Source: a virus (lineage: Duplodnaviria > Caudoviricetes). From it: 64,000 nt of DNA. Under the pieces are notes generated by a model. The model did not search any database, was not told the origin of the DNA, and saw only the letters and a program-made list of their open reading frames with translations. Positions within the stretch are counted from its first letter, which is position 1. Every line of letters starts with the position of its first letter. Shown here in pieces: positions 8,423-48,687 of the stretch. The DNA lies in the IMG/VR virus record IMGVR_UViG_3300044675_005052. One strand, 5' to 3'. A program made the translations under genes and the position numbers.

Positions 8423-8430
8423 TTAAAACT

Positions 8431-10296: not shown

Positions 10297-10303
10297 TTTA
10301 AAA

Positions 10304-29200: not shown

Positions 29201-29253
29201 GAATCAATTTTAAATTGAATGTTGGAATAAATTTTGAAATTTTATGTAATTAA
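26236..29253 (+). CDS. Baseplate wedge protein, gp7 / P2 gpI-like
   Basis: [11 protein letters not shown] and [20 protein letters not shown] match the P2-I/gp7 KGT...I..L..L.G motif. Confidence 0.7.
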
Positions 29254-32200
29254 TGGCTTGTAGTTTATCATATGTATTAACGAGTTTATCGGGAGATTGT
29301 ACTAATTCTAATTTAGGTGGTTTTAGTATTGATATAACTGGAACCGCACCGGATTATAGTATTCAGTGGGTTAATCCTGCTTTAGGGACTATTGTATTAG
29401 GTGTCGGAGTTACAGGTTATACCGCGACTACATTGTCCGCGGGAACATATTCATTTAACATTCTTGATTCATGTTCACCCACTATGAGTTCATTGCCGGT
29501 GAATATTAACATATCTAGTGGTACATGTGCAAGTATTGTTGGAATATCTAACACGACGTGTAATGACAATAATGGGTCAATAACAGGACAAACGTCTAAT
29601 CTTTATGGTATAAGTACGTTTAGTTTGTATAATACCTTAACAGGTTTTATTACTTCAGGCGCATCATTTACCAATAATTATATTTTTAATAATTTATCTC
29701 CGGGTATATACTATGTTAATGCTGACGATGGTGGTGGATGTAGTGGTCAGAGTGAAACAACTATTATTCAACCTTCGACAAATATTACGTGGGGATTTTA
29801 TACTGTAATGGATTCCGGATGTGCTAATGTTGATTCGGGGAAAATATATGTAACAGGTCTTACCGGAACACCACCATTTACTTATTTATGGTCTAATGGA
29901 GGGACAGACGATTTTATTACAGGATTGACTGCGGGTAGTTATTCTGTTCTTATTACTGATAGTTTAGGGTGTACCCTATCTCAAACAGCAACAGTTACTG
30001 AAGTTGAACCATTAGGTTTTGGGTCGTTTACCGCCATACCACCAACATGTTTTAATAATGATGGTCAAGTGACTCTTGTAATTACAGGAGGGACTGGACC
30101 ATATTATTATTCAGCATCGACAGGTGTTATAGAGGTTTCTTTTAGTTCATCTCAAACATTTTATAATATTGGTGGTGGACCATTTGCTGTTGAAGTTACT
30201 GACGCAGCTTTATGTAAAATAACTCCAACAACAACAATTATTCCACCAAACGGGTTTAATATCGTAAGTGTAACGACAACTAATTCAAATTGTGGTAATA
30301 GTGATGGTAAAATAGATATTCAGGTAAGTGGTGGTGCAGTTCCTTTTACTTATACTTTAACAGATTCTTTAGGTAATAGTATTATTGAACCTACTGATTT
30401 TAGAAGTTGGATTTTTTCTAATTTAGCGACGGGGACATATACTTTAACTATTTCTGATAATGGAGGTTGTACTTATGTTAGTCCACCTATCACCATAAAT
30501 AATATTCCTTTATTTACGTTTACTGCAGATACTACAGATACAATATGTAATTTAAATAATGGTTATGTAATGATTACAGTATCAGGTGGTACACCGCCTT
30601 ACACATATACTGTTGGGGGTGAATTTTCTTATGACTCTATCCAAACACCATTAAGTGCATATACTTTTATTGATTTATATTCCGGAGATTATTCGTTAGA
30701 AATAACAGAATCAACTCCTGGTATTATTTGTAAACAAACAAGTAGTTTTATGATTAACCCATCAAACAACGTTGATTTTATGTTATCAGGTACTGATGCT
30801 AACAATGGTAATGATGGTACAGTTTCAGCATATATTACAAGTGGAACACCTCCATTCACATTATTATGGAGTAATAACGTAAATGGTCAAACAGGGTATT
30901 ATTTAAGTAATTTAAGTGCCGGAACATACAGTTTACAAATCACGGATAGTGAAGCGTGTGTTAAAATTAGAGAGGTAACAATAGATGGGTTTGACTCTAT
31001 CTCATCATTTCAAACATTTAATATTTGTGATAGTGAATTTGAAAACATTGGGGAATTAGTTAAAAAAGGTCCTAAAGAAATGTTGAATGAAGGTTATTAT
31101 GATTTAACATCAGGATATACAAATTGTTTACTTAATCAAGCAATTTTTAATATAGTTGCAACTATTGGTGATGTAACAGAAACTTCAGAGTTTTATACAA
31201 GTTATGCTTTAAATGATTTTCCAACAGATAATGAATATTTTGACGCTTTAGTCGCGTTATTAGAAACTTTTGACCAAGTCGCTCAAGTTAACATTGACCC
31301 ATTAAACAACGGAATTCAAATAATTGCTAAATGTCAAGAACAATATTTAGTGACAACTGATGTTACTGTTGATATGTTTATTGAATATAATATTTCATGT
31401 CAATATTGTAGTTTACCGCCAACACAAACTCCAACACAAACTCCAACACAAACTCCAACACCAACTCAAACATTAACTCAAACTCCAACACCAACTCAAA
31501 CTCTTACATCAACTGCTGGATTAACACCAACTCCGACTCCTACTCAAACATTAACACAAACATTAACACCAACACCAACTCAAACACCAACATTAACGCC
31601 AACTCAAACTCAAACATTAACACCAACTCAAACACCTACATCAACTATGACACCAACTCCTAGTTCAAAACAATTATGGTATTTATATACATCATGTGAA
31701 GTTGATGTTAATACTGAGGGACCGGCCTACTTAATTTTACAACCTATATTAGTAAATCCTTTATTAGGTGTTGGTGACGGATTTACTTTTACTGATGAAA
31801 ATGGTAAGGTAACGTGTTGGATATTAAGAGAAATTTATAATGGACAACCAACAAACTTACCACCACAATTTAATGTTCAAATTTGGAACACTAATTATTT
31901 TACAACAATTGGTAATGGTATTTACGATTCACAAAATGGTGCTGTTGATGCTTGTGGATTATGCGAGAAAGATATTGAATTAATTTTAGAACCAACAAAT
32001 AATTTCCTTATTAGTGTTACAAAAGATGATTCGCAAATCATAGATGTACAACCACCGTTCTACCTATATGATAATACATATAATTTCCCTGTAGGGGTCT
32101 TAAATCCTATGTATGGTACACATAACGGTATTAACAATGAAACTATATTTATTACGATTCAATCAATTAATGAATCAAATACAAATATTTGTATTTCATT

Positions 32201-32342
32201 AATCGTTAATGGTTCTGTAGCAGCGTCACAAATAGGGACATTCTCAAGTGGGGTTTTATTTATAGATGTTTCATTTACGGGTGTAACAATTTTACCAACA
32301 GATACTTTAGAAATTTTTGTGACTGCAGGTGATTGTCAATAA
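29253..32342 (+). CDS. Fibre/decoration protein with SprB-type repeats and a Thr-Pro linker
   Basis: Repeated C..G.I..GG..PY.Y.WSNG...L.AG.YSV.ITD..GC units; (TPTQ)n at 31416-31661. Confidence 0.7.
31416..31661 (+). repeat. Coding low-complexity Thr-Pro-Gln tandem repeat
   Basis: ccaacacaaact 12-bp units and variants. Confidence 0.9.
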
Positions 32343-32378
32343 TAAAAAACCCCCTCGTTAAAAGGGGGTTATTTTTTT
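32343..32378. terminator. Bidirectional terminator between convergent operons
   Basis: A run, AACCCCCT-CGTTAAA-AGGGGGTT, T run. Confidence 0.9.
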
Positions 32379-32976: not shown

Positions 32977-32982
32977 AATTTA

Positions 32983-35472
32983 TTAGAAATCAAATTTAAC
33001 CAAAAACTGTTGAATCCCTTGTCTTAACACAGGAGATTGTAGCTTTGATACAATCATAAGATTCATTTCGTTATCGTAAAGCCCAATTTCAGTAATATAT
33101 GAACTTGTTCCTTTAGTCCATGTAGGATTTGAGGTCGATTGAAACTCCGCTTGACCAAGATTTATCTTATATTTCATTTCATAGATAGTTGCTTCAATAT
33201 CAGTTTCTAATGAACCATAGAAATAATATTCATCACCAAAATTTAATGAAGGTGTGGTTGTATTACCTGACACTAATGGAATATAATCATTTAAATTGTA
33301 ATCATCAGCAGCTGCGTAATTTTCTTCAGTAATGGTAAATGTTGTACCTGTTAAACTATCTACGGTTAAATATCCATTGATAGTAGTTGCACTTATTTGT
33401 GAAGTAAAATCAATGATTTTCCAATCATCCGGGTTAGGTCTACCTGTACCAATTACTTTTTGACAAATAACTTGGAATGTGTCCGCATAAAACCCTGTAA
33501 TTAAGTCACAGGAAGGACACAGAGTCGTTGTTGTTGTTGTTGTGGTAGTTGTGGTTGGAATTAACGTTGGTTGGTTTAAACAAGGGAATTCAGCTCCAAA
33601 TCTAATTGAAACGTTTTGTTCGGTTAAATTACCACAAGAAATGTTTGGCCCTTGAATTTTAGTATAATAATTACAATGTAATGAATTAGTGAAAATATCG
33701 GTATTACTAAATCTATAAGTTACATACATATATTCAGTGTCCGCAGTTAATATACCATTAACTGTTGGTTGATTATTTTCAACAACACAAGTGTTTGGTG
33801 TAGTTAACCCAACTTTAGGTGCCGGTAATGTCCAGTTACGGTTTGACTTGTAAGACATTGCGGCAATAATCTCTTCATCATCAATAATGATAATTTGTGA
33901 ATCAGGGAATACTTTACCAACTCTATTTGGTAGACCAGTACTCTCGTTAACATTAGTGTCCCATAAATTATAATATCTAATACCCGGGTCATTCATACCT
34001 AAATTTTTAGTTGATAGAATATATTGGTCTTTAAATATTTGAGGAAATGTGTCTGAGTCAAATCCTGGAGGGTCAACCCAAAAAGTTTGACCTTTACAAC
34101 ATTCAGGATTTTTATGCCACATTAACCACGGCAAATGTAATCTAAAGTTACGAGCTTCACCTGTAGTATCTGAAGGGTTATTAGAGTCGTAAGGTTCAAA
34201 GGCAAATTTCTCACCATAGAAGAAATCAATTGATTGATTAGTATAGTGAATAATAGCAATAGCTTTTTGCTCACTTGGTTGAACAACAACTTGTTCATCA
34301 AATGAATTATAATAATAAACAACACTTGTATCGGTTTGTCCACTATCTGACATATATCCAAAATATTCTTTACTACCTAAATAAGACGCTGAACCAAAAT
34401 ATTGATAACCTTTATAAAATGAATCATACAATCCAGCAGGATTTTCCGACCAAGGAATATTCATATTCCAAATCTTAACATCTGATTCATCCGTACTACA
34501 TAAAGATTCAAAATTAATAACATTTTGATTCCAATGTGAGTTAGGTGTAATACTATCGTATAATGTTGTCATATTTGGTGGGTATACTAATACTCTAGCG
34601 AAACATCCACTTGAAAAGTTTGAAAAGTCAGGTGTTGGTCTGTCTAATGTATATAAACCATTACAGATATCTATAATTTTATAAGTTAATATTGGGTAAC
34701 AACTACTCATTGACATCTCACAATCAGGTGGTGTCGGAGTTGGAGGTAAAGGTGTAGTACAACAAGTTGAAGAAGGTGTTGGTGTTGGACCTTGGTCACA
34801 TATGTTAGCACTCTTAGTTATTGTTGGTGTAGGTGTTGGAGTTGGATTGGCCTCGTAAGTTGGTGTAGGTGTAGGTGTTGAAGTTGGTGTAGGTGTTGGG
34901 TTAGGGTCACAATAACAATTGTATTCACCTTGACCGTCGTAATATATTGTAACAAAATCACCAATCATTGGTAATCTTACAATATTTGAATTACACCCTG
35001 AATACACTAATTGAATAACACTACCACCTGTTAATGTAGACATATCTACAAGATAGTTAGAGTTAATTGTGTATTGGCTATTTGTTAACGCACTCCAATT
35101 AATTGTAGTTGCTGTTGTATTACCTGTAAAAAATCCTCTCATAGCGGCTCTATTATAAACCGCTTGAGGTACTGATGCCATATAAGGAATTCCGTATGTG
35201 TTACCGGTTATTCCATCAACATAATACGGGTATTTAACATTTTGTTTGTTTGTTTCAGGTGCAGCAGTTGAATTCTGAGCATTAAATGCGGGTTCAAGAA
35301 TATTTGTTGTGAATTGATTATAAGGTGTTCCTGTTAATGTATTGTAAGAAACCTCACTATCACCTACTTGAAAATAAGAGATATTAAAACTACCTTGTGA
35401 TAGTTTTAACCTTGCGGTATCGGTTAACCTTGTGCTAAGTAAACCTTGTGTATTTTTTAATATGTATCCCAT
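32983..35472 (-). CDS. Tail/baseplate-attached fibre-type protein with Thr-Pro linker
   Basis: C-terminal YITEIGLYDNEMNLMIVSKLQSPV resembles the tail-collar/fibre attachment motif; (PT)n at ~34726-34906; TATTTATA at 35477-35484 on the minus strand. Confidence 0.6.
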   Translation of the reverse strand: MGYILKNTQGLLSTRLTDTARLKLSQGSFNISYFQVGDSEVSYNTLTGTPYNQFTTNILEPAFNAQNSTAAPETNKQNVKYPYYVDGITGNTYGIPYMASVPQAVYNRAAMRGFFTGNTTATTINWSALTNSQYTINSNYLVDMSTLTGGSVIQLVYSGCNSNIVRLPMIGDFVTIYYDGQGEYNCYCDPNPTPTPTSTPTPTPTYEANPTPTPTPTITKSANICDQGPTPTPSSTCCTTPLPPTPTPPDCEMSMSSCYPILTYKIIDICNGLYTLDRPTPDFSNFSSGCFARVLVYPPNMTTLYDSITPNSHWNQNVINFESLCSTDESDVKIWNMNIPWSENPAGLYDSFYKGYQYFGSASYLGSKEYFGYMSDSGQTDTSVVYYYNSFDEQVVVQPSEQKAIAIIHYTNQSIDFFYGEKFAFEPYDSNNPSDTTGEARNFRLHLPWLMWHKNPECCKGQTFWVDPPGFDSDTFPQIFKDQYILSTKNLGMNDPGIRYYNLWDTNVNESTGLPNRVGKVFPDSQIIIIDDEEIIAAMSYKSNRNWTLPAPKVGLTTPNTCVVENNQPTVNGILTADTEYMYVTYRFSNTDIFTNSLHCNYYTKIQGPNISCGNLTEQNVSIRFGAEFPCLNQPTLIPTTTTTTTTTTTLCPSCDLITGFYADTFQVICQKVIGTGRPNPDDWKIIDFTSQISATTINGYLTVDSLTGTTFTITEENYAAADDYNLNDYIPLVSGNTTTPSLNFGDEYYFYGSLETDIEATIYEMKYKINLGQAEFQSTSNPTWTKGTSSYITEIGLYDNEMNLMIVSKLQSPVLRQGIQQFLVKFDF

Positions 35473-35502
35473 GTGATATAAATATTCTTATTTTTTTTAT
35501 TT

Positions 35503-36528
35503 TTAATTGACACTTATTATTTCTACTCTACAACATCCACAACCACTAATACTTGCGTTACCAATTGAGAATGAATCCTGACTTGATGTGTAAGTACAAG
35601 GGGTTAATGGGTCGTTTTGTGTTATTGTCGTTGTAGTATTTAATATGATACTATCTGAAGATGTAAAACTTAAAGAATTCCAACTTTCAGTATAATAATC
35701 TAAATAATTTGTTAAATTCTGACATCCTTGTAATGGATTATAATCAGTGTTAGTTGTTGTTAAACCACTTGTTGTTAGTGGAATAGAAACATTATTTTTA
35801 GATAACACAGTATTAGTAGTTAAAGTTGCTGTGGTAGCGCTTGGAGAATAGTAAAAAGTATTATAATGTAATATGTTAAAATTAACTATTACTCCACTTG
35901 GTAATTCAGGAATAACACTAAAAGTTGTTGTGTATTGTTTAGTTAGTGTTGTATTTGTATTAACCGGATTTGTTATTGTTGTATTTAATTTTAATTGATA
36001 TAATGTCGGAGGTGCCGGTTCATTTAATTTTACATTATTACTATTTGTGTTACCACTTGAATCAATCACCTTAACACTATACATACCCGAACATAAATTA
36101 TTAAAAATTGGTGAATTAAAATAAGTGACACCATTATCTATTGAATATTGGTATGGAGGATAACCTCCCGAAAGATTAATCATTAAATTACCATCACAAG
36201 TACATATTGGTTGATTAACACTAAAAGTTAATGAGTTAATTCCTAATGGATTACAAACACCTTCGTTAGCATAAACAGTTCCGTTAGCTCCTAATATATA
36301 CCAAGAGTTAAGTGGGGGTACAGAAGATGGTAAGGAAGAAAATACTGAATAAGTTAGATTACCACCATTCAATTTCCATCTACTTAATGAAACGTCCCAA
36401 TTAATTGAATAAGTGTAATCATCAGACACCCATTGATTATATCCATTATCATCTAATCCATTTGGATTAAAATGAATTTGTAAGTTATTAATACTTATAT
36501 TTAGACAAAAATTATATTCTATTTCCAT
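35503..36528 (-). CDS. Putative virion protein with SprB-like domain
   Basis: CTCDGNLMINLSGGYPPYQYSIDNG...NLCSGMYSVKVIDSSG. Confidence 0.6.
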   Translation of the reverse strand: MEIEYNFCLNISINNLQIHFNPNGLDDNGYNQWVSDDYTYSINWDVSLSRWKLNGGNLTYSVFSSLPSSVPPLNSWYILGANGTVYANEGVCNPLGINSLTFSVNQPICTCDGNLMINLSGGYPPYQYSIDNGVTYFNSPIFNNLCSGMYSVKVIDSSGNTNSNNVKLNEPAPPTLYQLKLNTTITNPVNTNTTLTKQYTTTFSVIPELPSGVIVNFNILHYNTFYYSPSATTATLTTNTVLSKNNVSIPLTTSGLTTTNTDYNPLQGCQNLTNYLDYYTESWNSLSFTSSDSIILNTTTTITQNDPLTPCTYTSSQDSFSIGNASISGCGCCRVEIISVN

Positions 36529-36529
36529 G

Positions 36530-38782
36530 TTATGATATTGATATTGTTACACCTTTTGTTGTTTGAAGAGTGCTATAGGATGTATAGTTAGTGTATGGTG
36601 GTGATGAAGTTCCATTAAGTGCTAATAGTTTAATACCCGACCAAGTTGATGATGCGTAACTCGTTAATAAATTATTAATGTTAGTACTATTAAGTCCACT
36701 ACCAAGTATTTCAATTTGATTTAAATCAGTAAAAATTCTTGAACTATTTGAGAATGTTGATATTGTGTTATTACCGCTAATGACTAAAAATCTAATATTT
36801 AAATGAACTAATGATAAATCACCAGATATTGTGTTATTACCTAGTATAGTAACATTACGATTGTTAGATGGTAAATCTTGAATATTTCCTGAAATTGTAT
36901 TATTACCATTAATATATAATTGTTGATTAATGTAAGAATTACCTAAACCACTAATATTTCCTGTAACAGTGTTATTACCATCTAATCTTAAACTTGCATT
37001 AGTTTTTAAATTAACACCACTAATATTTCCTGAAATAGTGTTATTCCCCAGAATAATTATTGTAGATAACGTTGTATAATTTAATGTTCCAATATTACCA
37101 TAGAGAGTGTTACTACCTGCAACCTCTAAGAATGTTAGATTTGGTGGTAATGTTGATATATCACCTGTTACAGAATTTTGCCCATATAATTGTATAACAG
37201 TTACAGAATTAGATAAACCTCCTAAATCACCTGAAACAGTATTAAGTCCTCTTAATTGTATTCTAAATAAATTAGGTGTTGACATTAAAGAAATGTCATT
37301 AGTGATAGTGTTTTGACCTGTAATCTGTAAATCCTCCATTAATGGTGGGCAATTACCAATATTACCAGTTATAGTATTATTACCACCAACAAAAAAGTTT
37401 TTTAATGTTGTCGGTAAATTAGATATATTACCTGATATATTATTTGATTGGTTTGGGAGACTCTGGAATAAATCTACACCAAATGTTTCTAAACTGCTTG
37501 GTAAATTTGCAACATTTCCGGAACAACTAGTTAAGTTTGACGCAAAAGAAATTAACGTTGATGGTAATAAACTTATATTACCTGATGTGAAAAAACCAGA
37601 ACCATAATTACCAAATGTTGTTAATCCATCTAAAATATTTATTTGAGAAGTTTCGACTTCTAAATATCTAACACTATTTGAAGTTATTTGAGGAGACACA
37701 CCTCCAGGTGATAATTGGGTTATAGATGTTAAATCTGCTGTCTGAATTAATATGTTTCCTGTGTAAGGTGTTGAATACGTATGTGTAATGTTAATTGACC
37801 CTGCCGGATAATTTGTTGTATTACCATCTCCCCAAACAACTCTAAACGGTAAAGATGTAATTACTATAAATGATTGTAATGAAGGGCTTACTGTGATACT
37901 ATTCAAACTTCTCGCAATCATCGTGAAAGTTTGACCGTATGGTGGTAATATTGGTGTTGATGATGTAGGTGTTAATGTTTGAGTTGGTGTAGGTGTTAAT
38001 GTTTTAGTTGGGGTAGGTGTCTGAGTCAATGTCTGAGTCAGTGTTTGAGTTGGAGTATTAGTAGGGACAGCCCCTGATGTTTGAGTTAAAGTTTGGGTAG
38101 GTGTTTGTGTAGGTGTATTAGTTGGGGTTGTGGTTAATGTTTGTGTAGGTGTTTGTGTAGGTGATGCCGTTTGAGATAAAGTAGGTGTTTGAGTTGGTGT
38201 AGGTGTTAACGTAGGTGTTTGAGTAGGTGTAGGTGTTGGACCTGACAATACGCATACGGTATTTGCCGTAAAATCACCATATGAATCCACAATAGTCGCA
38301 GGATATGACCCCGATTCTAAATCCATAATTGCTGGTGATATACTACCATCGGACCAAGTAATGGTGTAAGGTGGTGTACCTCCTGTAATAGAAATAGAGG
38401 CTCTACCATCACGACCACCAACAGTTGACGGGTTTATTACCTCACATTCAACGGTCATTGGAAATATTGTAATTACATCACATTCATTTGATTGAATATA
38501 AGTAATTGCTGGCTGAGGTGGAGGAGGTGGAAAACAACTATATGCGTTTTCTATACAATCAGAACGATTAGGATATAATACAACACTTCCATTTCCAGCA
38601 TCATAAATTAATGACCCTGATGGTATCGGACCTTGTATTAGTGTCGCACATCCACTAAATGATGGTATTGTGATTGCATAAACATTCCCTAAAATAGGAG
38701 TTGTTAATGTAAGGTCATTTACTCCGAAATAATTATCGGATTCATTTAATTTGACGCAACATGTTTGAAAATAATATATCAT
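36530..38782 (-). CDS. Putative receptor-binding/decoration protein: SprB repeat, Thr-Pro linker, PKD-like domain, LRR solenoid
   Basis: GGTPPYTITWSDG..DLESGSY; (TPTQ)n at 37950-38240; VVWGDG..HTYSTPY; about 12 repeats of L.I.GNNTISGNI..LP. Confidence 0.65.
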   Translation of the reverse strand: MIYYFQTCCVKLNESDNYFGVNDLTLTTPILGNVYAITIPSFSGCATLIQGPIPSGSLIYDAGNGSVVLYPNRSDCIENAYSCFPPPPPQPAITYIQSNECDVITIFPMTVECEVINPSTVGGRDGRASISITGGTPPYTITWSDGSISPAIMDLESGSYPATIVDSYGDFTANTVCVLSGPTPTPTQTPTLTPTPTQTPTLSQTASPTQTPTQTLTTTPTNTPTQTPTQTLTQTSGAVPTNTPTQTLTQTLTQTPTPTKTLTPTPTQTLTPTSSTPILPPYGQTFTMIARSLNSITVSPSLQSFIVITSLPFRVVWGDGNTTNYPAGSINITHTYSTPYTGNILIQTADLTSITQLSPGGVSPQITSNSVRYLEVETSQINILDGLTTFGNYGSGFFTSGNISLLPSTLISFASNLTSCSGNVANLPSSLETFGVDLFQSLPNQSNNISGNISNLPTTLKNFFVGGNNTITGNIGNCPPLMEDLQITGQNTITNDISLMSTPNLFRIQLRGLNTVSGDLGGLSNSVTVIQLYGQNSVTGDISTLPPNLTFLEVAGSNTLYGNIGTLNYTTLSTIIILGNNTISGNISGVNLKTNASLRLDGNNTVTGNISGLGNSYINQQLYINGNNTISGNIQDLPSNNRNVTILGNNTISGDLSLVHLNIRFLVISGNNTISTFSNSSRIFTDLNQIEILGSGLNSTNINNLLTSYASSTWSGIKLLALNGTSSPPYTNYTSYSTLQTTKGVTISIS

Positions 38783-38802
38783 TATAATTTGTTTCTGTTA
38801 TA

Positions 38803-39783
38803 CTATAAATAATCCTTTATTTGTTTTTTTACCAAAGATTTCATAACTTCTACATATTTTTTTGTTGAACTTTGAGAACTAACATAATCAAAAAAGTTAA
38901 TATCCTCTTTTAATTTATCTAATGGGTTAATATTAATAAAATCTCCTTTATAAAATTTATCTTGTTTTTGATTACCGGTCACACCCGCCATATGAAGAAT
39001 TGGTTTATCTTCATATATTTTTATTGAGTCGGTTGCCCATGAAAATTCAAACTCGGGTGTAATTCTTGTCTCAATTCCGTGTAACCATAAGTTCCATAAT
39101 AATGACCACATTTCTGCGGTCCAAAATTGAATTTCACCGGGACTTATTGGGAATCTTCTTTGATAATCTAACATTTGGTCATATAGTGGAACACAATCTG
39201 CATAAATTTTTTCCCATAATAACCAATCCGTATTTTTAATTAGGTATTGACCACCACCTGAATTTTCTTGATTACATTCGATACATTCGACTGACACACC
39301 AATAACGTCGGCCATTTCGTTAAGTAATTGACCTTTACCGGATGTAGGGTGAGCACTTTCATAACGATTACAACAATCCATAATATAGTTATATCCGATA
39401 TAACCTATGGTATCGGATAAGTAAGTAATATCGTCATTAATTAAACTATCAAAATTTGGTAATTTTCTGAATATAATATCAGAATCGTGTAAGAAGAAAC
39501 ATTTACCATGTTCAGGAAAATCTTTTAACCATTTTGAAATTAAAAAAGGTTTAACTGTCGGTATATAATGTTTTTGAGGTCTATCGTCGATATAATGATG
39601 TACGTTAACTCCGGTATCTTTTAATTTTAAAGATTCTTTAGTTGGTTTACCATCTTTACTTATTATTCCAAGTAATACGTGTATTTGATTAGGGGGAACA
39701 CCATGTTCAATAAAGTTATGTATATACACCATTATTTGCCAATGGAAATAAGGTACATCAGGTTGTGCTGTAACAAAAATCAT
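38803..39783 (-). CDS. Soluble GT-A glycosyltransferase resembling plant HPAT/SERGT1 (GT95/GT96) protein O-glycosyltransferases
   Basis: PYFHWQ, YIPTVKPFLISKWL, FFLHDSDIIF (DxD), WTAEMW..LHGI and ILH occur in the same order as the HPAT motifs I recall: Y..WQ, Y...NRPWAF.QWL, EPDH, WVLEMY..LHGV, IIHY. Confidence 0.7.
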   Translation of the reverse strand: MIFVTAQPDVPYFHWQIMVYIHNFIEHGVPPNQIHVLLGIISKDGKPTKESLKLKDTGVNVHHYIDDRPQKHYIPTVKPFLISKWLKDFPEHGKCFFLHDSDIIFRKLPNFDSLINDDITYLSDTIGYIGYNYIMDCCNRYESAHPTSGKGQLLNEMADVIGVSVECIECNQENSGGGQYLIKNTDWLLWEKIYADCVPLYDQMLDYQRRFPISPGEIQFWTAEMWSLLWNLWLHGIETRITPEFEFSWATDSIKIYEDKPILHMAGVTGNQKQDKFYKGDFININPLDKLKEDINFFDYVSSQSSTKKYVEVMKSLVKKQIKDYL

Positions 39784-39861
39784 ATTATATAAAACGTTTT
39801 TAATTAAATATAAATGACAATCAAATGTAATAAATGGTAAAGATGATGATATTTATATAAT

Positions 39862-40041
39862 ATGAAACTGATTAGAACAATATCGAATTTGGTAACTGAA
39901 TCTAAAAAAATTTACGAAGAAGCCTGTGAAAAAGGTGTCAACGAAAAAGAATTAGATAGATTAGAAAAAAACTACAACGAATCCTTAAAACTTTTAAGGA
40001 TTTATGAGGGTTTGAATAAAACCAAACAAGAAAATATTTAA
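39862..40041 (+). CDS. Small 59-aa protein missing from the ORF track
   Basis: MKLIRTISNLVTESKKIYEEACEKGVNEKELDRLEKNYNESLKLLRIYEGLNKTKQENI; TATTTATA at 39850-39857 directly upstream. Confidence 0.65.
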   Translation: MKLIRTISNLVTESKKIYEEACEKGVNEKELDRLEKNYNESLKLLRIYEGLNKTKQENI

Positions 40042-43000
40042 GTCCAAGAATATTTTATTTCAACTCCACTAATATGGACTGTCCATCTCATAGTATCTCC
40101 AACAGCACCGGTTACTTGTATATCTAAAGCATCATTTGTATCATCCGCAGATATTGTAACGTCATACAAAGCGTTATCTTCAACATCTGTCCCTATGGTT
40201 GATACCGGACTCGCACCAATTAATGAAGTTGTTCCACCTACATTTTTAATGGCAACTTTTCTTATATAGTGAGCTGCTGATGTACCACCACTAGTAATTC
40301 CTGCAATATTAATAGTAACAAACATTGCGGTTTCGTTTAAAACTGATATTCTTTGTGATGAACCATCTAAAAAAATGTTAACAGTTGTTACACCTGTTGT
40401 TGTATTTCTACCTAATAAATCTATTTGTTGTGTCTCACCTGTACCGGTAAATGGTGTCCAAGTTCCATTTGCAAACGACCTTTGTCCAAAACGAGGAGCA
40501 CAAGCTCTATTACCGCCAATAATAGATGAATTTTCTCCATACGCTCTATTAAGAAAACCTCCCGTTACTGTTGAAGATGCTCCAGATGCGACATTTAGTT
40601 GACCACCACCAATTGTTGAATTTGCCCCCGATGCGGTATTTTCTCTACCACCCCCAACAGTTGAATAATTATCACTTGCTGAATTACAAAAACCTCCGGC
40701 AATCGTTGCACGATTTCCATTTACAGTATTATCCCATCCACCACCTATTGTTGAAAAAAATCCTGAAACGATATTACTTATACCACCACCAATAACTGAG
40801 GTACACCCTGATGCGGTGTTACAAAACCCACCACCTATTGTTGAATCAACACCTGAGGCGATATTACTTCTACCACCACCAATAAATGAGTTAGTACCTT
40901 GTGTTGTGTTAAAACCACCACCGGCAATTGTTGAACGATAACCGTTAGCACAATTACCTCGTCCACCACCAATAGAAGAATCTCTACATACTGAATTATT
41001 CTCTCGACCTCCACCAATAAATGAATATTCTCCTAATAACGTATTACATCTACCACCACCTATTGTTGAATCTATTCCACCTGATGTATTACATCTACCA
41101 CCGGCAATTGTTGAAGTAGAACCTGATGATGTATTATTTGAACCACCACCAATAAATGAATAAACTCCTGATGCCGTATTACAATTACCACCACCAACAA
41201 CAGTTGAAGTTGATGATGATATGTTACCACCACCACTACCTACAAAAGAACGTAAACCTGATGCCGTATTACCATTACCACCACCTATTGTTGAAAAACA
41301 ACATGATGCCGTGTTTTTAAAACCACCACCAACAGTTGACCAACAACCTGAAGATAAATTACAACTACCACCACCAATAAATGAAGTACATCCTGATGCG
41401 GTGTTACAATATCCACCACCCACAAATGAAAAACAATTACTTGAAGTGTTTCCTGTACCTCCACCTACAAATGAAAAATATTCGGAAGAGGTGTTTTTAC
41501 AACCACCACCAACAAATGATGACTTACATGAGAGATGACAGACACCTGTACCAACAAATGAACCACTTCGTGCACAATTACAAAATCCATTTGATATGAT
41601 TGAATAACTACCACATGCGGTGTTTTTACGGCCTCCTATGATAGCGGAACTAGTACCATAAACTATGTTACAACAACCACCACCAATAAATGACTGATAA
41701 CCGTATCCAACACAATTAGATTGTCCCCCAACTATAGATGAATATTTAGTATAATATGAAGATATATAATTAGATTTACCACCACCAATTGTTGAAAACA
41801 CACTTGATACTGTATTTCCTGAACCACCAACAATTGACGAACAATTACCGATAGCACAATTAGTAGTACCACCACCGACAAATGATAATGCTGATGTCAC
41901 ATTTTTACAACCTCCGGCAATTGTTGAGGTATTACCTGATGCTATATTACAACATCCAGCGCCAATAAATGAATAAGCTCCTGAAGATGTGTTACTTAGT
42001 CCACCGGCAATTGTTGACCTAAAACATGAAGATGTGTTAGATTGTCCACCACCAACTGTTGAATACTGAGACGATGCTATGTTCTTACACCCACCTCCAA
42101 CAAATGAACAATTTCCTGACGCGGTATTATTTCTACCACCGGATATTGTTGAATCTATTCCTCCTGATGTATTATTTCTACCTCCGGCAATTGTTGAAGT
42201 TTGCCCTGTGGCGACATTTAAACTTCCACCACCAATGAATGAAAAATTACCTGAAACTGTGTTTTGATTACCACCACCAATTGTTGATGAGGTACCAGAT
42301 ACTATATTACCAACACCACCACCAATTGTTGTACAATAGTCTAAAGCGTTATTATTTATACCTCCCCCAATAAATGTATAATTACAAGAGACTGTATTAT
42401 TTCTACCACCGGCTATTGTTGAATAATTACCATTAGATTCGTTACTAAAACCCCCACCAATTGTTGAATGAGGACCTGAAGCAATATTACTACTACCACC
42501 ACCAATAAATGAACATGCCCCCGATGCTGTGTTTTTATAACCACCACCAATTGTTGAAGTACTACCAGAAACAGTATTACCACAACCACCACCAATAAAT
42601 GAATGAGTTCCTCCACTAATAATGTTTTGATTTCCCCCAACTACAACTGAAAAATCTGTTGTTCCCGAGTTTGATGACCCACCTAATACTGCACTACAAT
42701 TTCCCGATGCAAGATTACTAACACCACATCTAACAGATGAGTTAACACCTGTTCCGGTTATAATTACGGCTGATGAACCACCACCTCCACCACCGGCAAT
42801 AGGTACTAAAAGTCCATTTGTGCTAACTCCAACATAACAACCACTACAAGTACTCATAGAGTCAATAATCATGTCGTTAACAAATGTTGTACAATTTCTA
42901 TTTGCAGTTATATTACTACCAACAATCATAGCACATGTGCAACCACTAGTATTATTAGACGAACCACCTAATATTGATGAATAATTACCGGATGATATAT

Positions 43001-45212
43001 TACCTCTACCACCACCAATAAATGAATGGGTACTTGTTATAGTATTTTGACTACCACCAACAATACTTGAAGTGGCACCTGATACGGTATTACCAATACC
43101 TCCCCCAATAAATCCTTGACAAAATCCACCTGAACTTGTTGTAAAATTTCGTAAAAGTGGTTGTGACGAAGGGAACGCTCCCATTGCGGCAGTTGCTCCA
43201 GTAACATATAAGTTTGTATATGGTGATGAATATGTTTGACCTGTAATAACTACGTTTCTACTACATCCAAAATTGTCATATGTTAATAAAAGGTCGTTTA
43301 CACTAAATGATGATAATTGATTCCCGTACAATTGTATTGTACAAGTGTTTGCCGAATATGATGATATTACTTGAGAATTACCTATAAAGTTTAATGCTCC
43401 ACCACCAATCATTGAATGACTAGCAAATGTTACATTAACGCTTCCGCCTCCAATAACACCAAAGTCTTCTACGACTCTATTATTATTACCACTTACAATA
43501 CCACCACCATAAGAACATTGACCTAAACAGTTTCCACATCCACCTAAAATTGCTGCTCTAACTCCATATGTTTTATTATTTAATCCTCCACCAATAACAC
43601 CATCTTCACCAACGCCTGTTGTACCCGATATCATATTACTTCTACCACCACCAATAAATCCAAATTCGTTACATATTGTATTACTAATACCACCGGCAAT
43701 TACTGAATTTGATGGGTTCAGTGTATTACTAGTAATACGATTGTTAAACCCACCACCTATTGAAGAAGATGTTCCACAAATAAAATTAAATCTACCACCG
43801 GCAATTGTTGAGTAATTACAACATGAGGTATTAAAACAACCTCCCCCAACTGTTGAACAACCACCTACTGAACAGTTAAGATAACCACCACCAATTGTTG
43901 AACAATTTCCTGATGCGGTATTTCGACGACCACCACCAATAAATGATGTAGCTCCTGATGAGATATTACAACAACCACCACCAATCGTACCATATACTGT
44001 ATACACAATATTTGATTTTCCACCACCAATGAATGAATAAGGACTACAGGTAATATTACATCTACCTCCAGTAATTGTTGATTTATCTCCACAAACAGTA
44101 TTTTGCATTCCACCACCAATGGTTGAACTGTCACAATAAGATTTGTTATTCGCTCCACCACCAACAGTTGAGTTATTCGCTAAGGCATAGTTGCAATAAC
44201 CACCGGCAATAGTTGCATCACCACTATTTGCTCCTGGACCAATAACACATGCTAAATTATATCCACCACCACCAATTGTATTTCTTGGCCCAATAACAAC
44301 ATTACAACAACCACCGATTATTGTTGAAGTATTTCCTGATATTCTGTTATAATCACCCCCACCAATGAATGATGTTGTCCCACCACTAATTATGTTTTTA
44401 GACCCCCCAACTACAACTGAAGAATCTGTTGTTGCTGAGTTTGAAATACCACCACCAATAAATGAATTGTTTCCTGATGCGGTATTTTGTTGACCACCAA
44501 CTATTGTTGAGGTTATATTTGTTGATGAGTTTAATATACCACCACCAATAAATGAATTGTCTCCTAATGCTTGATTTTCTTGACCACCACCTACGGTTGA
44601 ACCACCGCATGAGGTATTACAAAGTCCCCCACCAATAAAAGAATAATTATCTGATAAGGTATTCTTACTACCACCACCAATTGTACTTCCTATTGAATTA
44701 TTGCAAATAATATTACAATAACCTCCAGCAATTGTAGAACTTCGTGTTACATTTTTACCAACACCCACAAAAATACTATTATAAAGACCACCACCAATTG
44801 TTGATGTACCACCTGAAACACTATTACAAAAACCACCACTTATAGTTGAATCATTATTTGATACCGTATTACAACGACCACCTCCAATAAACGAATGTGT
44901 TCCTCCACTAACTACATTTTGTCGTCCACCAACAACCATTGAATAGTTTGTAGTTGCTGAGTTTGAATATCCACCTAAAGCACCGGAATTATCTCCTGAT
45001 GCAAGATTATTAACATCTCTTCTAATTGATGAGTTAACACCTGTACCACTTACAATTACAACAAATGGTGAACCACTAATTGCTTCATCGATTGTTGATT
45101 TATATGATGAACCTGCAGGATTTTGAGTCGGGTTATTAGTATCAACAATGTGAATTAATGTTTGACTTGTTGTAAACCCTGATGGTGAATATGTTCTTTG
45201 AGTTAAAATCAT
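40038..45212 (-). CDS. Long tail-fibre-like protein of ~14-residue Gly-rich repeats (predicted beta-helix / YadA-head-like)
   Basis: Dozens of S(T/F)IGGGxxNxASGxx units; two homologous blocks; globular C-terminal domain; TATTTATA at 45230-45237 on the minus strand. Confidence 0.7.
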   Translation of the reverse strand: MILTQRTYSPSGFTTSQTLIHIVDTNNPTQNPAGSSYKSTIDEAISGSPFVVIVSGTGVNSSIRRDVNNLASGDNSGALGGYSNSATTNYSMVVGGRQNVVSGGTHSFIGGGRCNTVSNNDSTISGGFCNSVSGGTSTIGGGLYNSIFVGVGKNVTRSSTIAGGYCNIICNNSIGSTIGGGSKNTLSDNYSFIGGGLCNTSCGGSTVGGGQENQALGDNSFIGGGILNSSTNITSTIVGGQQNTASGNNSFIGGGISNSATTDSSVVVGGSKNIISGGTTSFIGGGDYNRISGNTSTIIGGCCNVVIGPRNTIGGGGYNLACVIGPGANSGDATIAGGYCNYALANNSTVGGGANNKSYCDSSTIGGGMQNTVCGDKSTITGGRCNITCSPYSFIGGGKSNIVYTVYGTIGGGCCNISSGATSFIGGGRRNTASGNCSTIGGGYLNCSVGGCSTVGGGCFNTSCCNYSTIAGGRFNFICGTSSSIGGGFNNRITSNTLNPSNSVIAGGISNTICNEFGFIGGGRSNMISGTTGVGEDGVIGGGLNNKTYGVRAAILGGCGNCLGQCSYGGGIVSGNNNRVVEDFGVIGGGSVNVTFASHSMIGGGALNFIGNSQVISSYSANTCTIQLYGNQLSSFSVNDLLLTYDNFGCSRNVVITGQTYSSPYTNLYVTGATAAMGAFPSSQPLLRNFTTSSGGFCQGFIGGGIGNTVSGATSSIVGGSQNTITSTHSFIGGGRGNISSGNYSSILGGSSNNTSGCTCAMIVGSNITANRNCTTFVNDMIIDSMSTCSGCYVGVSTNGLLVPIAGGGGGGSSAVIITGTGVNSSVRCGVSNLASGNCSAVLGGSSNSGTTDFSVVVGGNQNIISGGTHSFIGGGCGNTVSGSTSTIGGGYKNTASGACSFIGGGSSNIASGPHSTIGGGFSNESNGNYSTIAGGRNNTVSCNYTFIGGGINNNALDYCTTIGGGVGNIVSGTSSTIGGGNQNTVSGNFSFIGGGSLNVATGQTSTIAGGRNNTSGGIDSTISGGRNNTASGNCSFVGGGCKNIASSQYSTVGGGQSNTSSCFRSTIAGGLSNTSSGAYSFIGAGCCNIASGNTSTIAGGCKNVTSALSFVGGGTTNCAIGNCSSIVGGSGNTVSSVFSTIGGGKSNYISSYYTKYSSIVGGQSNCVGYGYQSFIGGGCCNIVYGTSSAIIGGRKNTACGSYSIISNGFCNCARSGSFVGTGVCHLSCKSSFVGGGCKNTSSEYFSFVGGGTGNTSSNCFSFVGGGYCNTASGCTSFIGGGSCNLSSGCWSTVGGGFKNTASCCFSTIGGGNGNTASGLRSFVGSGGGNISSSTSTVVGGGNCNTASGVYSFIGGGSNNTSSGSTSTIAGGRCNTSGGIDSTIGGGRCNTLLGEYSFIGGGRENNSVCRDSSIGGGRGNCANGYRSTIAGGGFNTTQGTNSFIGGGRSNIASGVDSTIGGGFCNTASGCTSVIGGGISNIVSGFFSTIGGGWDNTVNGNRATIAGGFCNSASDNYSTVGGGRENTASGANSTIGGGQLNVASGASSTVTGGFLNRAYGENSSIIGGNRACAPRFGQRSFANGTWTPFTGTGETQQIDLLGRNTTTGVTTVNIFLDGSSQRISVLNETAMFVTINIAGITSGGTSAAHYIRKVAIKNVGGTTSLIGASPVSTIGTDVEDNALYDVTISADDTNDALDIQVTGAVGDTMRWTVHISGVEIKYSWT

Positions 45213-45242
45213 TGGTTTTTGTTTTATATTATAAATAGTTCG

Positions 45243-45548
45243 TTATTGGAAATCGAATATCTCAAAGTCCATAAATTCAAAATATTCGTAATCTTGGAAT
45301 TGTTTTGGAACTGGTGGTAATAAGTTACAATATACCACTTCAAATCTTTCACAACCATCCCCATAAATGACTTTAATACCTACTGCGGCAACATTATTAA
45401 ATTGTGAAGGTAACACAATAATATTATCCGGAGGTACTGAAGTAACTATTGTTGCAATTAACGCACAATGATTACCATAAACATCACACGCATAAATTGT
45501 ATACGGGAAGTTTGAACCTGTAATTGCTTGTATGTTAATTGCTGTCAT
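45243..45548 (-). CDS. Small putative structural protein, paralogue of 48689-48904
   Basis: Shared ITG..P(Y/F)..Y.CD...P..(F/W).......IKVI...(G/N)CE pattern. Confidence 0.65.
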   Translation of the reverse strand: MTAINIQAITGSNFPYTIYACDVYGNHCALIATIVTSVPPDNIIVLPSQFNNVAAVGIKVIYGDGCERFEVVYCNLLPPVPKQFQDYEYFEFMDFEIFDFQ

Positions 45549-45551
45549 ATA

Positions 45552-47771
45552 TTAAAAAGTATATAATGGGTTTGTTGGTAATTGAAGAACACCATTTATT
45601 ACTGTTGCAACGACATCACTAAATACACTATTAGAAACACCATTAACAATAGGTGATGCTAAAATTCTAAAAGATTTAACATTATTTGGGTCTGTTAATT
45701 CAACTCTATAATGATAGACGGAAACAAATTGTTGAATACCTCCACCGCTCGATGTTCCGATTGATGTAAAATTATTACAAGTTAATGCGGATAACGAAGG
45801 TATTTGTGTATAAGGTGAACTACTACCTGAAAAAGGTACTGTTGAGTTAAGATAATTATTTAGCCAATAAAACCCATGGAGAGTTGATGCACTAACAACG
45901 GTTGGTGGATTTTCTACAAAATATAAAGATGCCCCAAAAGGTCTAACATATTTAGAACCAGTATTGGTTGTGAAATCTTCAATATTTGTTACTCCGGTTG
46001 AACTAACATTAACATTTCTAATTATATCGTTAATGATGGTTTGACAACTAATATCACAAGGGTCAAACGGTGGTAAACCGTCAGATATTGTTGGCATTGT
46101 GATGTTTAAAGTATAAACCCCTCCTGTATCTCCGGTTGTTACTATACTAGAATAATGTATATCATATTTTACAACAGTTGTTCCATCTCCACAAGGATTA
46201 GATTGGGGTTGTTTTGGTATATATAACTCAAAATATCTATAATAATTTGGGTCGGCAGGATTTGATGGTGTTCCATAATAAGGTGACAACAAATCATAAG
46301 ATGATTTATAATGTATTAAATCACTTAAACTACTAAATTCCATTTTAATTACTCCTTGTCCTGATGGACCAGTGTTTTCTTTTTTAAATTTAATTGTATT
46401 TGTGTTAGGGGGTGAACAAGTTGGTGTTGTAGTAAAGTTATAATTTGCAGAACAGGTTGTAGAGTCCCAATCTAATGTGTTAGGGAAGTTCCTATTAAGT
46501 AGTCCTGTACTATTATTGGTGCTTACCTCAGAGAACTGTGTCGTATTGATAGCTGTTATAGTTGTTACTTGATATTTGTAAATATCGTTATCAGTTATAG
46601 CACTTGAGGTACAACCTGATAAATTAAGATTAACTATAATTGATGAACAAGAACCTGTAAAACCAGTAATAGATGATGATTGTATTTTATATGGTGTATT
46701 TAAATAATCGTATAAACATAAATCACAGTCAAAGGTGTCCATACAAGTAAAATAAAAATCCCATTCCGTTTGTGGGTTAATTTGATTTGGAATTACTTCT
46801 AAAATTAAATAATCTCCGGGACTTCTTGTTAATGATGTTAATGATGTTACTTTTGAAAAATAATTTGAAGTATCGGCTGATTTTGGAAAAGTTAATAAAT
46901 TAATAAATGAAGTTCCAAGGTCACCTCCAACTACCCAATACTCTAAAATAATTGGGTCTGTATATGCTGAACCATAAAACGTAATTTTAAGTGAGTCCGG
47001 TATATTAAACCCTCGAAATTTCCAAGAAAAATAATCGGTTGTTAAATCTAATTCAAATGTTGATTGTAAAGTTAATGGAGTTACACCTGCGGCTGCTCCA
47101 GCAAAATTAACCCTATGAGTATAATTGTTCGGTAACGGTACTGTTCCATTGTCACAAGTAAAAGGTTGAACATTAACTGTTGTTGCGTTAAAACATTCTA
47201 ACTCGGCTTGAATATAACCAGTTCCACCTGTTTGAGAATAATTAAGTCCATTTAGTTTAACTTTATCAATTACAGGTATATAAGTTCCTGCTGGCTGCAT
47301 TGGAGAATTAATACCTACTAATGGATGTGTAAAATCTCTTGGTAAAAAATTTATATCTTGACCAAAACCTGATGTGAAGGCAATATTTGTTGAAGAATTT
47401 GGTCCGTACCAAATTATTCTATAATCTGTAATGTCATTTTCACAACTACCGGTTAATTCTCCTGCGACAATTAAACCAATAGTATTAGTTTGATATGAAT
47501 CAAAGGATAACTCACAAGTTGTACATAAATCGTTAGATAATAAATCAAGTGTTGCACAACATTTTGATAATATGTCTATTATTCTAATTGTGGTAGTTAA
47601 ATCGGGTACATTACCCATAACATACGGACATAACGGACCAAATAAACTATCATAACTTACGTTAGTTTGAAAAGGTGATGTATAATTATCAACGTTTGAA
47701 TATATGTTAAATGTTCCACCTAAAAGGGTAGTTCCTAAATCGGTTAAACAAGTTGAAGCTGAAAACGGCAT
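45552..47771 (-). CDS. Putative structural protein, 739 aa, Thr/Cys-rich
   Basis: Lies in the minus-strand fibre operon. Confidence 0.6.
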   Translation of the reverse strand: MPFSASTCLTDLGTTLLGGTFNIYSNVDNYTSPFQTNVSYDSLFGPLCPYVMGNVPDLTTTIRIIDILSKCCATLDLLSNDLCTTCELSFDSYQTNTIGLIVAGELTGSCENDITDYRIIWYGPNSSTNIAFTSGFGQDINFLPRDFTHPLVGINSPMQPAGTYIPVIDKVKLNGLNYSQTGGTGYIQAELECFNATTVNVQPFTCDNGTVPLPNNYTHRVNFAGAAAGVTPLTLQSTFELDLTTDYFSWKFRGFNIPDSLKITFYGSAYTDPIILEYWVVGGDLGTSFINLLTFPKSADTSNYFSKVTSLTSLTRSPGDYLILEVIPNQINPQTEWDFYFTCMDTFDCDLCLYDYLNTPYKIQSSSITGFTGSCSSIIVNLNLSGCTSSAITDNDIYKYQVTTITAINTTQFSEVSTNNSTGLLNRNFPNTLDWDSTTCSANYNFTTTPTCSPPNTNTIKFKKENTGPSGQGVIKMEFSSLSDLIHYKSSYDLLSPYYGTPSNPADPNYYRYFELYIPKQPQSNPCGDGTTVVKYDIHYSSIVTTGDTGGVYTLNITMPTISDGLPPFDPCDISCQTIINDIIRNVNVSSTGVTNIEDFTTNTGSKYVRPFGASLYFVENPPTVVSASTLHGFYWLNNYLNSTVPFSGSSSPYTQIPSLSALTCNNFTSIGTSSGGGIQQFVSVYHYRVELTDPNNVKSFRILASPIVNGVSNSVFSDVVATVINGVLQLPTNPLYTF

Positions 47772-47781
47772 ATTTTAATTT

Positions 47782-48687
47782 TTAAGTTTTATTATATAAG
47801 TAACCCTCTAATCCACAATCAATACACGGAGATGGAATTCCTGAAGATGTTGGTGTAGGAGTTGGAGTTGGTGTAGGTATAATTGATTCTGAACATAAAA
47901 TACAATCCGCACCTATTTGACTTCCATAAGGACCAATTAGTAATGTAATATCATCAATACCGATTGTGTTATTATTAACCCCAATATATCCAACACATAT
48001 TACTGTCCCATTAACGTTAGCTTGATAAACTTGAAAATTTTCAATTGGGATATTTCCTGGTGTAACTAATTGATTTGTGGTATAATACATCGTACCGTCA
48101 TAACAATTTTGGAATTGATAACTATAAGGACATACAATACTATCATCAATTGTATTGAAAGTTACCCCTTGTTCAAAAGTACAAGTACGAGCAATTTGTG
48201 CCGATGGTGTCGGGGTCATTGTAGGTGTTGGTGTTGGAGTGGAAGTAACACTTTGAATTGTTGCACTTATAACTACATTACAAAATTTAGTTGGTGTAGG
48301 TGTTGGTGTAGGTGTTAATGTAGTTGTACTAGTTACAGTTGGTGTTGGAGTTGTTTCAAAATCACAATCAAATATTGCTGAGAAATTTAAATTTGCACAA
48401 TTTAATGTTGGTGTGGGAGTTGGTGTTGGACACGCTCCAATAGAAAAATAAACATCATCTAAATCCGGACACGGGTTGAAACAAGGTGATTGACCCGATA
48501 AAAGACAAGACCCGTCTAAAACTGTTGATAAACACCATTGAGTTGACCCTGTGTTATAATAAATGGATAATCCATTTGTTTGACCGGTCCAATATAGTTG
48601 AGAATTCCATGTCCCTGCACTAAAGTATAGGTCGTTAAATGTTGGGTAACCAGTGTTTGAAAGGCAATATGTAGAACTACACGGCAT
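47782..48687 (-). CDS. Putative structural protein with multiple Thr-Pro linkers
   Basis: Four (PT)n tracts separated by Cys-containing modules. Confidence 0.65.
   Translation of the reverse strand: MPCSSTYCLSNTGYPTFNDLYFSAGTWNSQLYWTGQTNGLSIYYNTGSTQWCLSTVLDGSCLLSGQSPCFNPCPDLDDVYFSIGACPTPTPTPTLNCANLNFSAIFDCDFETTPTPTVTSTTTLTPTPTPTPTKFCNVVISATIQSVTSTPTPTPTMTPTPSAQIARTCTFEQGVTFNTIDDSIVCPYSYQFQNCYDGTMYYTTNQLVTPGNIPIENFQVYQANVNGTVICVGYIGVNNNTIGIDDITLLIGPYGSQIGADCILCSESIIPTPTPTPTPTSSGIPSPCIDCGLEGYLYNKT

Follow-up and report, generated by a model that had tools for sequence, protein, structure and literature searches.

What a phage gains from a glycosyltransferase (GT) encoded among its fibre genes is the question raised by a 64-kb stretch of DNA (64,000 nucleotides; hereafter the window) from the IMG/VR virus record IMGVR_UViG_3300044675_005052. 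In the window, a candidate GT gene on the minus strand is surrounded by genes for large, fibre-like proteins with long threonine- and proline-rich tracts. The initial annotation, made from the letters of the window, proposed that the phage uses this enzyme to decorate Thr or hydroxylated Pro on its own virion proteins. Our analysis favors a related answer: with a probability of about 0.7, the enzyme, which belongs to the phage family phrog_4417, O-glycosylates Thr-rich tracts of virion proteins in the cytoplasm. The general idea of a phage GT acting on its own Thr-rich virion tracts is supported by the predicted fold and by co-occurrence, and none of the computable outcomes that speak against it turned up.

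The open reading frame (ORF) of the GT reads through all 326 amino acids (aa) with no internal stops. The motifs quoted in the initial annotation are all found in its translation, namely PYFHWQ (aa 11), KPFLISKWL (78), DSD (100), WTAEMW (221), LHGI (234) and ILH (262). In an alignment of 59 family sequences (A1), W15, Y73, D100, D102, Y128, G177, M225, F247, H264, G267, F277 and K279 are invariant; W221, M225 and W226 show little or no variation. Because of this conservation, the motifs are not chance strings. As had been noted, a membrane anchor is absent: the highest Kyte-Doolittle mean over 19 residues is 0.83, and residues 2-8 form strand beta1 in the structural model described below. Residues 1-317 match positions 1-291 of the 293 positions of the phrog_4417 profile (E 1.7e-68, 231.9 bits); PHROGs lists it as a phage protein family of unknown function. 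An exhaustive HMMER search extended the family to 814 clusters at 50% identity, and at least 593 contigs in IMG/VR encode a member.

Comparison with named families by sequence gave negative results throughout. A Pfam scan of the GT assigned no family and returned no match to Glyco_transf_8 (GT8); a match to IgGFc_binding (E 0.022, below the cut-off) was dismissed as chance. When PDB chains were searched by sequence, both the protein and the family profile yielded only TALE-repeat noise. We paid particular attention to PF23452, the Pfam family of the plant HPAT proteins (GT95), for which the family threshold is 23.9 bits. Its profile found nothing in the GT at E <= 10, matched two of the 59 aligned relatives without significance (best E 0.09) and none of 96 additional relatives at E <= 0.001, leaving 155 diverse relatives overall without a significant match. 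A hidden Markov model (HMM) search of the phage's own genome with PF23452 was empty, but equally so in control genomes, and is uninformative.

An AlphaFold (AF2) model built from the 59-sequence alignment reached a predicted local distance difference test score (pLDDT) of 97.5 and a predicted template modelling score (pTM) of 0.94; a model from the single sequence was unusable (pLDDT 40.6), and the alignment-based model was used instead. We searched this model with Foldseek against the PDB, the Swiss-Prot part and the clusters of the AlphaFold database (AFDB), and the ESM Atlas. The PDB contained 318 matches at E <= 0.001, and all 50 matches listed are glycosyltransferases, led by UGGT (GT24), LARGE1, XXYLT1, LgtC and glycogenin (E 2e-7 to 1e-5, template modelling (TM) scores 0.36-0.46). 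In AFDB Swiss-Prot, the nine best matches are SGT1 (GT96) and the HPAT/RDN/PLENTY/NOD3 proteins (GT95), with E 3.7e-11 to 1.2e-7 and TM 0.55-0.62, followed by GT8 proteins at TM about 0.45. Among AFDB clusters, three entries of the GT's own family precede algal "HPAT-like domain" proteins (TM 0.58-0.66), and in the ESM Atlas own-family clusters are followed by chlorophyte PF23452 clusters (TM 0.71-0.73); clusters near the GT family carry PF23452 on about 10% of their members. No solved HPAT structure is among the 50 PDB matches listed, and the HPAT/SGT1 neighbors are all predicted structures.

According to the model, the protein is a metal-dependent glycosyltransferase of GT-A fold with a conserved DxD motif and a distal His. 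The named leaders of the structural searches are SGT1 and the HPATs rather than enzymes that modify DNA or lipopolysaccharide (LPS). The initial guess of GT95/96, made from motifs, therefore holds at the level of the fold and fails at the level of sequence profiles. We call the modelled protein HPAT/SGT1-like and not a demonstrated member of GT95, GT96 or PF23452, because no significant PF23452 match exists among the 155 relatives. Many relatives are 500-1400 aa long and carry further domains: Glyco_transf_7C (6), the Skp1-type N-acetylglucosamine transferase PF11397 (3), GT2 (3), and also protein O-fucosyltransferase (O-FucT), GT6, GT25, GDP-mannose dehydratase/epimerase and a methyltransferase. 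Judged by their domain matches, these partners are company typical of a glycan-building enzyme.

If the enzyme acts on Thr-rich tracts, the two should occur together in other phages, and this is what we found. By tblastn, GT homologues of 25-37% identity are present in 77 cultured-phage records, from which nine independent lineages were inspected. Poly-Thr tracts, mostly C-terminal, occur on structural proteins near the homologue in 9 of 9: on head and tail proteins of phiFL1A, the head protein and gp8 of iLp84, the tail tube and gp11 of phiCTP1, a tail protein and an overlapping T-rich frame of SA2, a tail protein each of VPE25 and bIL285, a tail protein and a protease-capsid fusion of 1706 (both ending in T9-10-HHD), gp068 and gp069 of Bacchae, and two upstream ORFs of Chryseobacterium phage MA9V-3. 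Homologues without such tracts, an outcome that the initial annotation had named as contrary to its proposal, were thus not encountered in any lineage inspected. In most of the nine, the homologue lies directly 3' of the gene for the major capsid protein, the major tail or tail-tube protein, or a small T-rich protein. The coupling extends to orthologous proteins: in phiFL1A and R3.3, both of which have the GT gene, tail proteins of the phiFL1A gp50 type (50-60% identical) terminate in poly-Thr, while their orthologues in Javan47, 315.6 and phiJL-1 end without it, and the family profile has no match in the whole records of these three phages.

Two details of the cultured phages may be mentioned here. 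In Staphylococcus phage SA2, a 90-aa frame (19658-19930) that includes a Thr-rich tract of 50 residues lies just upstream of the GT homologue and overlaps the major tail protein gene (19117-19713) at its 3' end; it has the appearance of an extension made by programmed frameshifting, through which some of the tail subunits would acquire a long glyco-tag. In Lactococcus phage 1706, the protease-capsid fusion (6971-9031) and the major tail protein (9741-10478) end in T9-HHD and T10-HHD, respectively, and the bIL285 tail protein ends in T9-RHD, which suggests that a short conserved motif follows the Thr run in these two phages.

The association was also recovered from the opposite direction. A blind scan of IMG/VR for (ACN)x10 returned 118 loci (1.01 Mb), and a control scan for (GAN)x10 returned 117 loci (1.03 Mb). 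The GT family HMM matched 8 of the 118 poly-Thr loci and 0 of the 117 controls (Fisher one-sided p = 0.0036). With a mean length of only about 8.6 kb for the stored loci, 8/118 is a lower bound. All eight loci share one layout: the GT gene immediately follows an ORF on the same strand, 439-2069 aa in length, that contains one to six poly-Thr linkers at intervals of about 70-100 residues. These GTs are 33-37% identical to that of the window and 32-57% identical to one another.

Within the phage's own clade, defined by GTs 56-99% identical, the arrangement is conserved. ORFs with T/P tracts were present in 77 of 80 clade loci and in all 46 of those with full flanks; per 20 kb, clade loci hold 3.16 tract-bearing ORFs compared with 0.35 in control viral DNA totalling 1.03 Mb, an approximately ninefold difference. 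A tract-bearing ORF directly adjoins the GT gene in 49 of 65 clade loci, mostly downstream, and the ORF immediately 3' of the GT gene bears a T/P tract in 43 of the 65. Thr accounts for 45% of the residues in the clade tracts, Pro for 29% and Ser for 8%.

In the window itself, the four Thr/Pro tracts reported initially are real and lie on the large ORFs 29253-32342, 32983-35472, 36530-38782 and 47782-48687 (Table 1). ORF 32983-35472 additionally bears the poly-Thr tract TTTTTTTTTTT (aa 635-654, nt 33511-33570), which includes an 11-residue Thr run; in most clade loci an orthologue of this ORF, about 810-860 aa long and likewise bearing a T/P tract, lies 1.4-2.1 kb downstream of the GT gene. 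The most likely substrate candidate in the window is the product of ORF 36530-38782, whose linker spans about 98 aa (aa 180-277, nt 37952-38245). Two further tract-bearing ORFs lie on the contig outside the window, the tail sheath gene and a 294-aa ORF. In the sheath, aa 288-321 form the poly-Thr tract TTTTTTDPHTTTTTTDPCTTTTSTSTTSTTTAKP, which presumably lies in a surface insertion; a candidate glyco-tag is therefore also present on the major tail protein. The earlier description of the genes around the GT as structural is supported by the SprB repeats, the beta-roll domain, the gp6-like baseplate wedge and the tail sheath on the contig; it is a deduction and not an annotation.

Which residue would receive the sugar? 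The initial annotation had allowed for hydroxylated Pro, which we disfavor. Neither the 98.7-kb record nor three relatives of 93-100% completeness, among them the closest (GT 94% identical), gave a match to the PF13640 oxygenases; tracts of Firmicutes phages are often pure Thr, and many tracts elsewhere are without Pro. Since no prolyl hydroxylase of this type was found there and Thr is the feature shared by the tracts, Thr rather than hydroxyproline is the likely acceptor. A plant-like two-step route, in which a 2-oxoglutarate- and Fe(II)-dependent (2OG-Fe(II)) prolyl hydroxylase acts before arabinosylation or galactosylation as in extensins, is by the same evidence highly improbable, even though the fold is nearest to HPAT/SGT1, clade tracts contain 29% Pro and one of five related records, G004, does encode a PF13640 2OG-Fe(II) oxygenase (60.8 bits, 6091-6772). 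The latter lies about 85 kb away from the GT gene. It adjoins a GT2 match (6091-6261) in a 940-aa open frame.

We propose the following working model. A soluble, cytoplasmic GT-A enzyme would bind a host nucleotide sugar, the presumed donor, through its DxD motif, His and a metal and, presumably during late infection and before or during assembly, move the sugar onto Thr hydroxyls of disordered Thr-rich tracts. In this phage, the acceptors would be the TP, TPTQ and poly-T linkers of the fibre-like proteins and the poly-T insertion in the tail sheath. The enzyme is probably of the retaining type, as an analogy to GT8, GT95 and GT96 would have it. Glycosylated PT-type segments are extended and protease-resistant in mucins, cellulase linkers and extensins; by this analogy, the modified phage tracts may be stiff and protease-resistant, and the particle would carry mucin-like brushes of glycans that possibly act as a shield or an adhesive and from which the phage would presumably benefit. 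Relatives encode six to seven GT2 proteins and mostly also an epimerase elsewhere in the genome, which could extend such glycans or serve other purposes.

Several points weigh against this model. Sequence HMMs tie the GT to no named GT family, and the literature searched holds no experimental report of glycans on virions of these phages. The structural role of the ORFs around the GT is one that we infer, and the 1724-aa ORF directly upstream of the GT gene is without a TP tract. The candidate acceptors in the window are internal TP linkers and those of the siphophages are C-terminal poly-T, so that the extrapolation crosses tract types. Clade loci share a common ancestry and count as conservation, not as independent events. 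In addition, Pro/Thr linkers are widespread without dedicated glycosyltransferases. Alternatively, one could regard the Thr/Pro tracts as plain linkers, unmodified or modified by the host, with the GT acting elsewhere or serving as a virion or assembly factor and the link being indirect. PT linkers are indeed common in secreted bacterial proteins, 110 of the 118 poly-T loci have no GT family member within the stored stretch, and in 16 of the 65 clade loci neither ORF next to the GT gene bears a tract. We nevertheless consider this explanation unlikely: Thr runs beside the GT, as C-terminal tails or interdomain linkers, are common to phages of Bacillota and Bacteroidota, the GT and poly-Thr are lost together in orthologues, the count in the blind scan is a lower bound, and the invariant DxD and His argue for catalysis.

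A further alternative grants that the enzyme is active and assigns it a non-protein target, either the hypermodified bases of phage DNA or a glycan of the host envelope such as LPS, teichoic acid or capsule, its position in the genome being incidental. The best-known roles of phage GTs are DNA glucosylation and serotype conversion (PMC12619734), the closest solved structures include the LPS enzymes LgtC and WbbM, and the GT2 genes and epimerase of the relatives indicate other glycan chemistry. Such a target would leave unaccounted for that the GT gene lies inside the head/tail modules of unrelated siphophages, after capsid and tail genes and not in replication or lysogeny modules, that it is present or absent together with poly-Thr tails on orthologous proteins, and that the blind scan places it directly 3' of poly-T ORFs. 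The protein also has no membrane segment, and its nearest named folds are peptide O-glycosyltransferases. Taken together, a non-protein target appears quite improbable, and modification of Thr-rich virion tracts remains our preferred reading.

Virion glycosylation as such has precedent. Mycobacteriophages (Che8, Corndog, Myrna) are described as glycosylating their own virions with phage-encoded GTs (PMC12619734, PMC12801897), with glycans at the C-termini of capsid and tail-tube subunits as cited in PMC12619734. This layout resembles that of the Firmicutes siphophages, with their poly-Thr C-termini and a GT encoded beside those capsid and tail genes. Two features of the mycobacteriophage type recur: the GT gene lies within or beside virion structural genes, both in the window block and in cultured phages, and virion proteins carry candidate acceptor segments that co-vary with the GT. 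The present cases differ in that they concern phages of Bacillota and Bacteroidota and a roughly 290-kb aquatic myovirus, in that the candidate acceptor is a conspicuous poly-Thr or Thr/Pro tract, and in that the window tracts are internal fibre linkers and a sheath insertion, not only C-terminal ends; moreover, the glycans here are predicted. Our full-text literature search found nothing on this GT family, on poly-Thr tails as phage glycosylation sites or on DUF7164/PF23452 in phages. Hence, virion glycosylation is already known from mycobacteriophages, and what is new is the pairing of a phrog_4417 GT with poly-Thr tags in other phages.

Among enzymes, the plant and algal hydroxyproline O-arabinosyltransferases HPAT1-3/RDN/PLENTY (GT95, PF23452) and the peptidyl-serine alpha-galactosyltransferase SGT1/SERGT1 (GT96) are the closest named predicted structures, with TM 0.55-0.73 over about 280-320 residues. 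They share with the phage GT a GT-A fold with DxD, and their acceptors are, like the candidate phage tracts, repetitive, extended Pro/Ser/Thr-rich protein segments. HPAT and SGT1 act on hydroxyproline or on Ser of Ser-Hyp, with UDP-L-Araf (arabinofuranose) or UDP-Gal (galactose) as donor. In contrast to these enzymes, which have a type II membrane anchor and a Golgi-lumenal catalytic domain, the phage GT has no anchor, no PF13640 prolyl hydroxylase partner was found for it in the record or in the three most complete relatives, its likely acceptor is Thr instead of Hyp or Ser, and identity is 12-16% with no significant PF23452 match. The GT8/GT24 clan (LgtC, glycogenin, XXYLT1, the catalytic domain of UGGT, LARGE1), whose members are retaining GT-A enzymes, provides the best solved matches and shares the overall architecture, the DxD and a downstream His-x-x-Gly metal site; its TM scores are lower than those of HPAT/SGT1, a Pfam GT8 match is lacking, and most of its members have other acceptors (LPS, glycogen, N-glycans). 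In the ESM Atlas, Pseudomonadota clusters join PqqD (PF05402) to a catalytic domain of PF23452 whose fold is similar (TM 0.69-0.72). Fusion to this peptide-binding recognition element of ribosomally synthesized and post-translationally modified peptides (RiPPs) suggests a peptide acceptor, and the PqqD-fused HPAT-like proteins are possibly RiPP peptide glycosyltransferases. They are cellular and not viral, and have no poly-Thr context.

If the proposed O-glycosylation takes place, virion glycosylation would be widespread beyond actinobacteriophages, extending to dairy phages of lactococci and lactobacilli, to jumbo phages of aquatic origin and to the phages of Enterococcus and Staphylococcus with which therapy research works. 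Such a coat would influence how antibodies recognize the particle, how well it withstands proteases and the environment, its adherence to mucus or polysaccharide and host-range measurements. A poly-Thr tag together with a single soluble enzyme of 300 aa would be a compact tool for site-directed O-glycosylation in bacteria, and the fold link to HPAT/SGT1 would offer a soluble, easily expressed model for a class with no solved structure among the matches found. The glycosylation claim is directly testable with cultured phages and standard mass spectrometry. More tentatively, phrog_4417 and poly-Thr or Thr/Pro tracts might form a portable glyco-tag system that coats capsids, tails, sheaths and fibres, with the GTs being true homologues of HPAT/SGT1. 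Should this broader and rather doubtful joint claim be correct, the tag would be in use in hundreds of phages, with Bacillota and Bacteroidota among their hosts, and extensin-type and virion O-glycosylation would share one ancestral peptide-GT lineage that includes the PqqD-fused bacterial enzymes.

Table 1. Features of the GT locus and of the surrounding record (positions refer to the window unless marked "record").
Feature	Position	Strand	Evidence and remarks
gp6-like baseplate wedge subunit	14222-16060	+	phrog_219, E 7.5e-24; marks where the tail/baseplate module with the GT block begins
SprB-repeat protein, 1029 aa	29253-32342	+	Pfam SprB E 4.2e-25, 4 repeats; TPTQ linker aa 722-806 (nt 31416-31670)
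Cys-rich protein, 829 aa	32983-35472	-	tract scan; PT tracts aa 189-250 (nt 34723-34908)
SprB-repeat protein, 341 aa	35503-36528	-	Pfam SprB E 6.4e-5; below tract threshold; same minus-strand block
Protein of 750 aa	36530-38782	-	SprB-type domain, Thr/Pro/Gln linker, repeat-rich C-terminal part; directly downstream of GT
Candidate protein O-glycosyltransferase, 326 aa	38803-39783	-	phrog_4417; GT-A model; DxD D100-S-D102; His264
Inverted repeat TCCTTAAAAGTTTTAAGGA	39980-39998	-	AT-rich; T-run soon after
Beta-roll repeat protein, 1724 aa	40038-45212	-	Pfam LbR_Ice_bind E 2.6e-11; Gly/Ser/Thr/Asn/Cys-rich; upstream of GT
Cys-rich protein, 739 aa	45552-47771	-	no family match; same block
Cys-rich protein, 301 aa	47782-48687	-	tract scan; three TP tracts aa 111-134, 145-163, 268-285 (nt 47833-48357)
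Tail sheath, 1110 aa	record 75900-79232, outside window	-	Phage_sheath_1C 37.6 bits; Phage_sheath_1
ORF of 294 aa	record 97464-98348, contig end	-	PTPTPTPTLTPT tract near N-terminus

The window lies within a 98.7-kb record of 34% CheckV completeness, and near-complete relatives are 274-318 kb. Its GC content is low (about 32%), and the replication and repair genes encoded comprise ribonucleotide reductase, DnaB, a UvsX-like protein, SbcCD, primase and a sigma factor. The baseplate wedge in the window and the tail sheath elsewhere on the contig identify the phage as a myovirus. SprB is a gliding-adhesin repeat of Bacteroidota; Pfam finds it in three fibre-like ORFs (29253-32342, 35503-36528 and 36530-38782), and the best cultured-phage match to the GT is a Chryseobacterium phage (36.9% identity). 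Together, these matches point to a member of Bacteroidota as the host. A search with DnaB found cultured relatives of at most 28% identity, that is, none close. Its size, aquatic origin, SprB repeats of the Bacteroidota type and abundance of GT genes would fit the "moraphage" jumbo-phage lineage (PMC12619734), to which the phage possibly belongs.

The GT block, 32983-48687(-), is flanked by the baseplate module on one side and the primase gene on the other. A weak GT2 match in ORF 56216-56806 (13.6 bits, sub-threshold) was dismissed as noise. The 294-aa ORF at the contig end has weak matches of Hint/intein type (Hom_end_hint E 1.7e-4, PT-HINT 3.3e-4), all below the cut-off. Around the GT gene, promoter-like sites are fewer than in shuffled sequence (8 vs 11.2), which makes the scan uninformative on timing; two terminator-like sites were also recorded. 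The inverted repeat of Table 1 lies in the 254-nt gap between ORF 40038-45212 and the GT gene, about 40 nt past the stop of the former; it was not called by the consensus terminator scan, and it may be a terminator that gives the GT its own transcription unit. The domain matched by ORF 40038-45212 is a grass antifreeze beta-roll; the ORF sits in a stretch where GC is 0.37-0.38 compared with about 0.32 and GC skew is strongly negative.

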